58,881 nucleotides of DNA, from assembly GCA_049274945.1 (NCBI GenBank), contig JBASTP010000001.1, positions 1 through 58,881 of the forward strand, given 5' to 3'. This document shows, piece by piece, positions 29,628 to 30,526 of this stretch (its first letter is position 1; each line of letters starts with the position of its first letter). A program made the position numbers and the translations under genes. Source of the stretch: Patescibacteria group bacterium (lineage in GTDB: Bacteria; Patescibacteriota; UBA1384; GWA2-35-9; JBASTP01). The notes under the pieces are model-generated. The model did not search any database. It saw only the letters and a program-made list of their open reading frames with translations, and was not told the DNA's origin.

Positions 29628-29638
29628 TTCCTTGATTC
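29628..29638 (+). repeat. solo copy of the array repeat between the two RAMP-like genes
   Basis: TTCCTTGATTC lies 10 nt after the stop of gene A and 3 nt before the ribosome-binding site (AAGGAG 29642-29647) of gene B. Confidence 0.8.
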
Positions 29639-29653
29639 TGAAAGGAGAGCAAA

Positions 29654-30526
29654 ATGCCCGAAAGAGTTGACATAATTCCGGCAAACTGTACCAACTGCTA
29701 CCGCTGCGAGTGGGTGCTGCGCGACGGGAGCCTGTGGGAGGCATCCGTACCGGTCAATACCAGAAGCCTAACTGGCTGGTTTGGCGCCATGCCCTACGAG
29801 AAGAAACAACTCGAACGGGCGCTGGCAGGGGTTCAGGATGAAGCCGAGCAACTCCGCATTGTCCAAGACCACCACGCCCACATAGCCGATAAAGCTGCCA
29901 AGGTGCTCGAAGAAACTACTCGAGGCTTCACGCACCAGGACCAGGATTCCATGATCCCGGGCGATATTCGATTCAAGCGCACCCGGAATCTCTCTTTGTT
30001 TTTCGGCGCCGGGAATATTCTTGGAGCCATCAAGGAGGCAGCCTGGTACCAAACCGATAATCCGGGCACAAAACGCCGGCTGAGCGGCGATCCGCCAAAG
30101 TTGTACCTGCGGCCGGGAAAGGTGGTGATTTTTCGCCCCCACACCGACGGGTATACCAGAATCCCGGTTACCATGGCTGACGGCAGGCACGAGCGCCACA
30201 GCCCACCGGAGGCGCCAGGCCCCAAGAATATGTTCAGGGGCAAGAAGGCCACCTCGGTGTTCGCCGAGTATGTAGGCCCACCGGCCAACTTGGCCTTCTA
30301 CCTATGGGTTGACCCGAAGGCAGCATCCATGGAACAACTTGAACTGTGGTCGCGCGTTGCCGGCGACCTTGGCCTGGGGGGATACCGCCAGATGAGGCAA
30401 GGCCAGTTTAACGTCGTAACGTTTGAAGAACTCGGCGACGATGCCAAACAGCGGCTCCTCCAACAGGGGAGGCAAAAACAGGAGATCGAGCAAATGGAGG
30501 AACTGGTCGCCCAAACCACCCAATAA
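29654..30526 (+). CDS. RAMP-like protein candidate B (paralog of A)
   Basis: CxxCxxC near the N-terminus, GAGNILGAIKEAAWY, KVVIFRP (compare CVVIYPD in A) and a glycine-rich loop DLGLGGYRQMRQGQFNV (30371-30409). Confidence 0.5.
   Translation: MPERVDIIPANCTNCYRCEWVLRDGSLWEASVPVNTRSLTGWFGAMPYEKKQLERALAGVQDEAEQLRIVQDHHAHIADKAAKVLEETTRGFTHQDQDSMIPGDIRFKRTRNLSLFFGAGNILGAIKEAAWYQTDNPGTKRRLSGDPPKLYLRPGKVVIFRPHTDGYTRIPVTMADGRHERHSPPEAPGPKNMFRGKKATSVFAEYVGPPANLAFYLWVDPKAASMEQLELWSRVAGDLGLGGYRQMRQGQFNVVTFEELGDDAKQRLLQQGRQKQEIEQMEELVAQTTQ

Follow-up and report, generated by a model that had tools for sequence, protein, structure and literature searches.

A copy of the array repeat abuts the ribosome-binding site of a predicted Cas7-like gene in a Patescibacteria group bacterium

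Arrays of short repeats lie on either side of a pair of genes, here called A and B, in a 58,881-nucleotide stretch of DNA (the window; contig JBASTP010000001.1 of GenBank assembly GCA_049274945.1) from a Patescibacteria group bacterium. Here we describe one further copy of that repeat, which stands alone between the two genes and directly upstream of the Shine–Dalgarno sequence of gene B. The identity of this solo copy, its conserved position in related loci, its co-variation with the repeat of the neighbouring arrays, its restriction to B-type genes and the Cas7-like fold of protein B are established by the analysis below. We propose that the solo repeat has been maintained as an operator of gene B, acting at its ribosome-binding site within a messenger that would run from the second array through A and B, and that protein binding there represses the synthesis of B, a reading to which we give a little less than an even chance.

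The solo repeat at gene B

As the initial annotation had noticed, a perfect array repeat, TTCCTTGATTC, lies between the two genes. The features on which the argument turns are as follows.

28617-29618, forward strand: gene A, 333 amino acids, a distant paralogue of B with the RAMP core and G-rich loop (from profile alignment)
29628-29638, forward strand: solo copy of the array repeat, TTCCTTGATTC (exact sequence match; relatives have their own variant at the same position)
29642-29647, forward strand: Shine–Dalgarno sequence of gene B, AAGGAG, inside GAAAGGAG (read directly)
29654-30526, forward strand: gene B, 290 amino acids, with a Cas7-like RAMP fold (from a predicted model)

The solo copy matches the 11-nucleotide repeat core with no mismatches, is on the forward strand and is oriented like arrays 2 and 3. 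It starts 9 nucleotides past the stop codon of gene A and ends 3 nucleotides ahead of the Shine–Dalgarno sequence and 15 nucleotides ahead of the ATG at 29654, thereby spanning positions -26 to -16 relative to the start codon of B; read in order, the region consists of the TAA of gene A (29616-29618), 9 nucleotides, TTCCTTGATTC, TG, AAAGGAG, 6 nucleotides and the ATG. This start codon is secure because the N terminus of B aligns with those of its homologues. GAAAGGAG is the usual ribosome site here and is also present ahead of gene A and of the neighbouring tasR-like gene at 31846.

The window contains 23 matches to the 11-mer with at most one mismatch, where 1.5 would be expected. The form YTCCTTGATTC likewise has 23 copies in the whole 850-kb genome, 22 of them in the A/B locus and one elsewhere (C3:46174). 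The loose 3' extension of the array repeats, NNYG, is absent from the solo copy, which is followed by TGAA running into the Shine–Dalgarno sequence; the array consensus has G at +4, and the solo copies of the relatives are likewise without a consistent extension.

The lone outside copy, TTCCTTGATTCCACGTT (C3:46174-46184, reverse strand; L015:1675-1685), shares 17 identical nucleotides with the repeat at 30829 and the start of its spacer. A tRNA gene ends about 170 nucleotides upstream of this copy, and a small open reading frame follows about 95 nucleotides after it; the copy may have been left behind by an array unit that moved, or be a target in trans.

Conservation across related loci

We compared 13 B-family gene starts in 12 distinct loci, comprising the window and 11 fetched loci, at 31-84% protein identity; searches for further loci added none from genome contigs, one from metagenome contigs and none from viral contigs. 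Gene A precedes B wherever upstream DNA is present, and short-repeat arrays are found in nearly every locus. The array repeat of each locus and the distance from the end of the repeat at B to the ATG of B are given below, with loci numbered as in our collection.

Window: array repeat TTCCTTGATTC; 15 nucleotides
L001: array repeat TTCCTTGATTC; 14-15 nucleotides
L002: array repeat TTCCTTGATTC
L004: array repeat of the YTCGATTC types
L006: array repeat of the YTCGATTC types; 13-14 nucleotides
L007: array repeat of the YTCGATTC types; 14-15 nucleotides
L008: array repeat TTTTTGATTC; 16-17 nucleotides
L010: array repeat TTTTTGATTC; 14-15 nucleotides
L013: array repeat TTTTTGATTC; 20-21 nucleotides
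L012: array repeat TTGTTTC; 12-13 nucleotides
L009: array repeat of the TCATKGRTGC type; 18 nucleotides (a weaker, variant-type, non-core call)
L011: probable copy; 16 nucleotides (a weaker, variant-type, non-core call)

A copy of the locus's own 7-mer core precedes 9 of the 11 B-type starts in loci whose core is defined by a 7-mer, and two variant-type cases (L009 and L011) come in addition. The copies ahead of B track the variant of the arrays, being TTCCTTGATTC in the window and L001, of the CTCCTCGATTC type in L006, of the CTnTTCGATTC type in L007, TTTTTGATTC in L008 and L013 and TTGTTTC in L012. The distance from repeat to ATG is held at 12-21 nucleotides while the length between A and B ranges from 34 to 217 nucleotides, and relatives in which B is only 31-50% identical keep their own repeat variant abutting the Shine–Dalgarno sequence of B. 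The window and L001 agree fully in the repeat and TGAAAGGAG, while both flanks have diverged. As a chance baseline, the locus's own core occurs three times in 17.3 kb of A/B coding sequence, corresponding to about 0.0017 per start for a 10-nucleotide window. Without selection, it is difficult to account for copies that change with the array variant time and again and yet stay at a fixed distance from the ATG.

The arrangement follows B-type genes. Gene A never has an abutting repeat, the last array repeat lying 49-136 nucleotides before its ATG. L012 contains a second, diverged B-family paralogue (3226-3779; hhalign probability 99.6%, E = 1.7e-24) with no similarity to the A family, and this gene has its own TATAAT box, followed by a TTGTTTC repeat, GAGGTGA and an ATG at a distance of 13 nucleotides. 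The contig end cuts this paralogue at 169 amino acids.

Across the family, conservation within the repeat falls on T-Y-G-A-T-T-C, its 3' half, whereas UUCCUU in the 5' half gives way to U runs or AUCAU. The conserved trait is therefore the identity of the repeat and its contact with the ribosome site of B, not a stem.

Most relatives have a GC-rich hairpin, frequently with a T run after it, in the interval from the stop codon of A to the solo repeat (for example, L006:1770-1815, L008:1-35, L010:340-375 and L013:4930-4968); it is absent in the window and L001. This hairpin could be an attenuator or a protector of the 3' end after cleavage; in combination with the repeat, it looks like a CRISPR repeat of full length, the hairpin being the stem and the repeat the 3' handle.

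Proteins A and B

The AlphaFold model of B (mean predicted local distance difference test score (pLDDT) of 64) matches almost exclusively Cas7-family RAMPs, namely Cmr4, Csm3, type VII Cas7 and gRAMP, with VIA Z scores of 8-10.5 over 135-171 residues, where unrelated models typically reach a best Z of 7-8. A Foldseek search with the model returned CRISPR RAMP chains in all of the top 25 rows (best E about 1e-3), and B has a G-rich loop, GLGGYRQMRQGQF, before the last strand of the RRM-like RAMP fold. By these fold criteria, we assign B with moderate confidence to the Cas7 family of RAMPs. The ESM Atlas model of B lies near Cmr6-family RAMPs at template modelling (TM) scores of 0.48/0.55. In the same atlas, A and B are nearest to several uncharacterized phage (Uroviricota) clusters of 210-270 amino acids (feature score 0.95). 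No named RAMP family is as close as these clusters, which for B have TM scores of 0.56-0.62 by query and 0.72-0.75 by row. Sequence-level viral relatives of A or B were not found in the IMG/VR viral contigs.

The model of A is poor (pLDDT 43). Deeper alignments show homology between the two families that spans the RAMP core and G-rich loop (hhalign probability 90%, E = 1.5e-6), and the ESM Atlas gives weak structural rows for A with Csm4 (TM 0.38-0.40); A may have a Cas5/Csm4-like role. The initial annotation had likened the arrangement to the autoregulatory logic of Cas6-type or repeat-binding proteins; the comparison with Cas6 is loose, as both proteins look like RAMPs of the Cas7 and Cas5 types. 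Searches of Pfam, NCBIfam and PADLOC with A and B gave nothing above cut-off (the best PADLOC match being Csm4 at E = 0.063), profile searches of PDB sequences gave nothing, and family scans revealed no DNA-binding domain in either protein. Cas1 was not found in the 95%-complete genome, in searches that gave hits in control genomes, and the same genome yielded no Cas6, Cas10, nuclease partner or Pfam-recognizable RAMP.

The family is rare. Protein B has three close homologues among 5.8 billion clustered proteins and falls in 12 clusters among 1.8 billion representatives, its nearest named relative being in Candidatus Berkelbacteria. No other genome in the order (7 genomes) or the class (162 genomes) contains B, leaving 1 of 162 in the class. 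The module of A, B and arrays sits in clusters of translation genes, between fusA and tuf in the window (27672-33757), just upstream of tuf-rpsJ in L001 (3679-6895) and just upstream of rpsB-tsf in L013 (6517-7705). Gene A itself starts with a 21-nucleotide tandem duplication (28617-28658; ATGGCAAGAAAGAC occurs twice, 21 nucleotides apart), giving MARKTTEMARKT; the invariant methionine of A is residue 8 in an alignment of ten sequences, which places the ancestral start at 28638.

Arrays, transcript and spacers

Three arrays and a terminator-like element frame the two genes.

27793-28084, reverse strand: array 1, six repeat copies, with a terminator-like site at 27737-27718
28181-28531, forward strand: array 2, seven repeat copies, with a promoter-like site at 28131-28159
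30543-30572, forward strand: intrinsic-terminator-like hairpin and T run after gene B (terminator prediction)
30651-31113, forward strand: array 3, nine repeat copies, with a promoter-like site at 30612-30641 and a terminator-like site at 31126-31144

The promoter-like and terminator-like sites flank the arrays and are oriented such that the RNA would carry UUCCUUGAUUC, which makes action of the arrays at the RNA level plausible. We found no terminator between array 2 and gene A, so array 2, gene A, the solo repeat and gene B are probably carried on a single transcript ending at 30543-30572.

The repeats have a core of 11 nucleotides, or about 16 with the loose NNYG extension, and follow one another at irregular start-to-start distances of 43-83 nucleotides. 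The spacers are mostly unique and 32-72 nucleotides long. Long spacers (52-72 nucleotides) hold degenerate repeats such as TTTGATTCTG and GATTCGTCG (27844-27856, 28437-28445 and 30847-30872), which indicates that the true unit is nearer 45-55 nucleotides and that the arrays contain decayed repeats. A comparison of the window arrays with L001:260-1210 and 3260-3520 showed that 3 of 20 spacers are common to the window and L001 (83% identical), at 88-97% identity and in other arrays or in shuffled order. With few spacers in common and those reordered, it appears that spacers turn over and move despite the missing Cas1.

No spacer matches its own genome over more than 14 exact bases, or more than 16 with one mismatch, and none matches the A/B messenger or region beyond 12 nucleotides. 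A phage collection gave nothing convincing (best E of 0.01 and 0.8 over 30-35 nucleotides), and Rfam gave no match within 27600-33800 at E up to 1. In L002, split repeats occur near promoters and array ends (1-60, 217-255 and 2413-2440), with TTCCTT and TTGATTC 9-22 nucleotides apart; part of this region is a conserved leader that is also found ahead of array 2 of the window (28166-28180). The idea that each repeat is the -35 box of its own promoter was rejected because no conserved -10 element follows the repeats.

A proposed operator and the alternatives

Proteins bound within about 20 nucleotides upstream of a start codon block binding of the 30S subunit, as in the operators of ribosomal proteins, MS2 coat protein and T4 RegA. 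Given the Cas7-like fold of B and the paralogous RAMP fold of A, one or both of these proteins would be the likeliest to recognize the messenger of B at -26 to -16. We propose that the A and B RAMPs assemble on the repeats of array transcripts, with the repeat serving as a short handle and Cas7-like subunits lining the RNA beyond it. The solo copy would be recognized in the same way, most likely by A and/or B, and the 30S subunit would find its landing site covered by the bound protein or by a Cas7-like filament begun there. Synthesis of B would then fall when protein exceeds array RNA, in an autogenous translational feedback based on a mimic of the RNA that the protein normally binds. Three steps of this scheme are inferred: action of the arrays as RNA, binding of the repeat by A or B, and repression rather than cleavage as the result of binding. 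The suggestion of the initial annotation that the repeat stands where recognition by protein would couple to B gains from the comparison, in which relatives place copies of their own variant at the same site; the route by way of a hairpin does not (see below).

Several observations weigh against this proposal. The site has decayed to CTTTTCTTGG in L002/L003, and L004 has instead a mini-array of three repeats between A and B, the last copy lying 47 nucleotides from the ATG. The loci are few and related, so that the counts are not independent events. The model of B is only moderate (mean pLDDT 64) and that of A poor (pLDDT 43). Sequence alone does not separate repression by binding from cleavage. 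Concerted evolution, in which gene conversion carries array sequence into the site, could preserve the identity of the copy with no recognition by protein, although it gives no account of the fixed distance to the ATG.

Of the alternatives, a site for processing only survives best, and we consider it unlikely. The solo repeat would be cut like the array repeats, separating the cistrons of A and B; B would acquire a short, defined 5' end consisting of the repeat remnant and the Shine–Dalgarno sequence, and the stability and yield of the A and B messages would set the ratio of Cas7-like to Cas5-like protein with no feedback. Consistent with this, there is no terminator ahead of A, which leaves the gene between two repeats like an oversized spacer; the GC-rich hairpin that most relatives have immediately ahead of the solo repeat could shield the 3' end of the A message after cleavage; L004 and L006 have three and two repeats, respectively, between A and B, like small arrays; and Cas5d of type I-C systems cuts precursor CRISPR RNA, leaving an 11-nucleotide 5' handle. 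A pure processing site, however, need not abut a Shine–Dalgarno sequence at a fixed 13-15 nucleotides, the second B paralogue of L012 keeps its repeat at 13 nucleotides despite having its own promoter about 27 nucleotides upstream, and we know of no nuclease activity for A or B. The fixed adjacency to the Shine–Dalgarno sequence, together with this paralogue, which has no cistron to be separated from, leads us to favour binding and repression.

The initial annotation had proposed a hairpin in which UUCCUU hides AAGGAG. As the main mechanism, such a stem would be opened by protein, by cleavage or by the ribosomes that finish translating A (coupling). The geometry it described was borne out: UUCCUU (29628-29633) lies antiparallel to AAGGAG (29642-29647), with five Watson–Crick pairs and a terminal U-G, a loop of 8 nucleotides (29634-29641) and 6 nucleotides from the Shine–Dalgarno sequence to the ATG.

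29629-29646, forward strand: predicted weak hairpin between the 5' half of the repeat and the Shine–Dalgarno sequence, 5 base pairs and an optional terminal U-G, 8-nucleotide loop (RNAfold)

For this mechanism speak the pairing probability of the B Shine–Dalgarno sequence, which at 0.95 is in the top 4% of the 153 genes of the genome that bear such a sequence (-60 to +30 context), and the stop codon of A, which lies 9 nucleotides upstream of the repeat in the window and L001, where a terminating ribosome could melt the 5' arm. A repeat/Shine–Dalgarno hairpin is also the local minimum-energy fold in 6 of the 10 loci that bear the element (the window, L001, L006, L007, L008 and L010), at -3 to -7 kcal/mol.

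Nevertheless, the stem is weak. RNAfold gives 29622-29656 a 5-base-pair stem of -5.2 kcal/mol, which 30 of 200 dinucleotide shuffles equal, and the z-score over 81 nucleotides of context is +0.5, with the repeat paired elsewhere in the minimum-energy fold; stems weaker than about -6 kcal/mol reportedly hardly lower initiation, according to de Smit and van Duin. The local folding energy of B is ordinary, at the 27th percentile among the same 153 genes. No such hairpin is predicted in L009, L011, L012 and L013, the repeats of which have 5' halves of the AUCAU type or rich in U. The Shine–Dalgarno sequence of gene A, which has no abutting repeat, served as a control and pairs upstream to a similar degree (0.57-0.79 in 6 of 9 loci scored, compared with at least 0.65 in 6 of 12 loci for B), and any pyrimidine tract beside a purine-rich Shine–Dalgarno sequence pairs in this way. 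Pairing that is both conserved in the relatives and stronger than at the control gene was not found. The hairpin is only marginally above chance, weak, not conserved and not special. Given the weak stem, its presence in 6 of 10 loci and the similarly paired control, it is not supported as the main mechanism, a role that we regard as improbable for it; pairing of the pyrimidine-rich half of the repeat with the Shine–Dalgarno sequence would be at most an accessory effect. Coupling of translation from A to B is likewise not a family-wide function, as most relatives have long A-B spacers and the GC-rich hairpin.

The accompanying claim that every repeat carries an anti-Shine–Dalgarno-like CCUU core holds within the window and fails across the family, in which U runs or AUCAU replace CCUU and the 3' half is the conserved part; the core is a lineage-specific feature, as read from the variants compared. 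A pattern search with the canonical anti-Shine–Dalgarno tail for the 3' end of 16S ribosomal RNA found no such end.

The solo copy could also be a relic, left when B-type genes entered an array by insertion or came out of one by duplication, with gene conversion homogenizing the flanking repeat. In its favour, arrays surround the genes, L002/L003 have a decayed site and the arrangement could have been inherited, as the loci are related. Against these stand the distance to the ATG, kept at 12-21 nucleotides down to 31% identity in B over intergenic lengths of 34-217 nucleotides, the repeats kept by both old B paralogues of L012 and the unchanged repeat and Shine–Dalgarno sequence between diverged flanks in the window and L001; we judge a relic very unlikely. 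Most improbable is an operator at the DNA level, with the repeat as a regulator's site, the arrays as clusters of sites and the solo copy controlling transcription into B: short repeats with irregular spacing, unlike those of CRISPR arrays, a TTGATT that resembles a -35 hexamer and one repeat flagged as promoter-like would suit it, whereas the copies of an array all point the same way as the promoter-like and terminator-like sites beside it, the oppositely placed array 1 is inverted in its entirety, which fits a signal in RNA, no conserved -10 element follows the repeats, and A and B have RNA-binding RAMP folds and no DNA-binding domain that we could find.

Implications

We found no description of the A/B-array module in the literature searched. 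The locus suggests a rare, minimal CRISPR-like module, and the solo copy is probably a repeat-derived cis element, regulatory or for processing, of this undescribed CRISPR-like module. A more far-reaching picture, possible but doubtful in our estimation, is an undescribed minimal CRISPR-like RNA-guided system of candidate-phyla-radiation bacteria, composed of a Cas7-like B, an A in the Cas5 role and an 11-nucleotide repeat of handle size, and working without Cas1, Cas6 or a nuclease. In such a system, the effector's own messenger would be a guide in cis, with the repeat at the B site nucleating the same assembly and free protein being gauged against array RNA, setting the synthesis of B.

If the same proteins recognize the repeats at the B site and in the arrays, a CRISPR-related system would be under post-transcriptional feedback that acts in cis, in contrast to known repeat-derived regulators (CreR and long tracrRNA), which act in trans on promoter DNA. 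The 11-nucleotide sequence would then be the minimal RNA that the proteins must recognize, providing a handle on both the purpose of the arrays and the control of the gene. The presence of a very rare family inside clusters of genes for ribosomal proteins and translation factors also bears on how bacteria with reduced genomes keep RNA-guided modules.

Comparison with known systems

Like the class 1 effector modules (type III with Csm3/Cmr4, type VII with Cas7, and type IV), the locus combines a Cas7-like fold in B and a paralogous RAMP in A with repeat arrays that have mostly unique spacers and show partial spacer turnover between relatives. It differs in its 11-nucleotide repeat core, compared with 23 nucleotides or more, and in its irregular spacing. 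Of the hallmarks of canonical CRISPR-Cas loci, we found neither repeats of at least 23 nucleotides with regular spacing, nor cas1 in the genome, nor membership of A and B in Cas profiles.

In stem-loop TIGR-Tas systems of candidate-phyla-radiation bacteria, guide units lie beside or inside the effector gene, and the authors suggest that guide maturation is linked to translation (Xu et al., bioRxiv 10.64898/2026.09.09.750476). The present locus comes from the same kind of organism, and a tasR-like gene neighbours the A/B module. A and B are, by contrast, RAMP-like and not Nop-domain proteins, and their array repeats are without stem-loop architecture. The possibility that the arrays belong to the neighbouring TasR was rejected, as the A/B-array module occurs with no tas gene in L001 and L013.

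CreR/CreA elements are separate, degenerate mini-CRISPR small RNAs that make Cas effectors repress cas promoters; in CreR, two degenerate repeats surround a spacer-like guide that pairs partially with promoter DNA, and transcription is repressed (Liu et al., bioRxiv 10.1101/2023.03.10.532045). The solo repeat likewise derives from an array repeat and stands next to cas-like genes, and it would tie expression of the effector to how much array RNA competes for the same proteins. Here, however, one perfect repeat lies inside the messenger at the ribosome site, and its effect would be in cis and post-transcriptional. The repeat is single, has no partner before the terminator at 30543, and no spacer matches A or B over more than 12 nucleotides.

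With hairpins that sequester a Shine–Dalgarno sequence, and with translational coupling, the site shares an upstream pyrimidine tract that can pair with a downstream Shine–Dalgarno sequence near an upstream stop codon, the difference being that the stem here is weak, not conserved in the family and no stronger than at the gene A control.

The solo repeat appears most similar, by analogy, to the autogenous translational operators that mimic a protein's RNA target. As in the operators of S8, L1, L20, MS2 coat protein and T4 RegA, in which the ribosome site of a messenger carries a copy of the protein's normal RNA target, the site reproduces the array repeat, the putative target, and overlaps the landing site of the 30S subunit (-26 to -16). 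What would set it apart from the ribosomal and phage operators is the nature of the partners: the proteins are of the RAMP type, and the cognate RNA that they are proposed to bind is a CRISPR-like array repeat.

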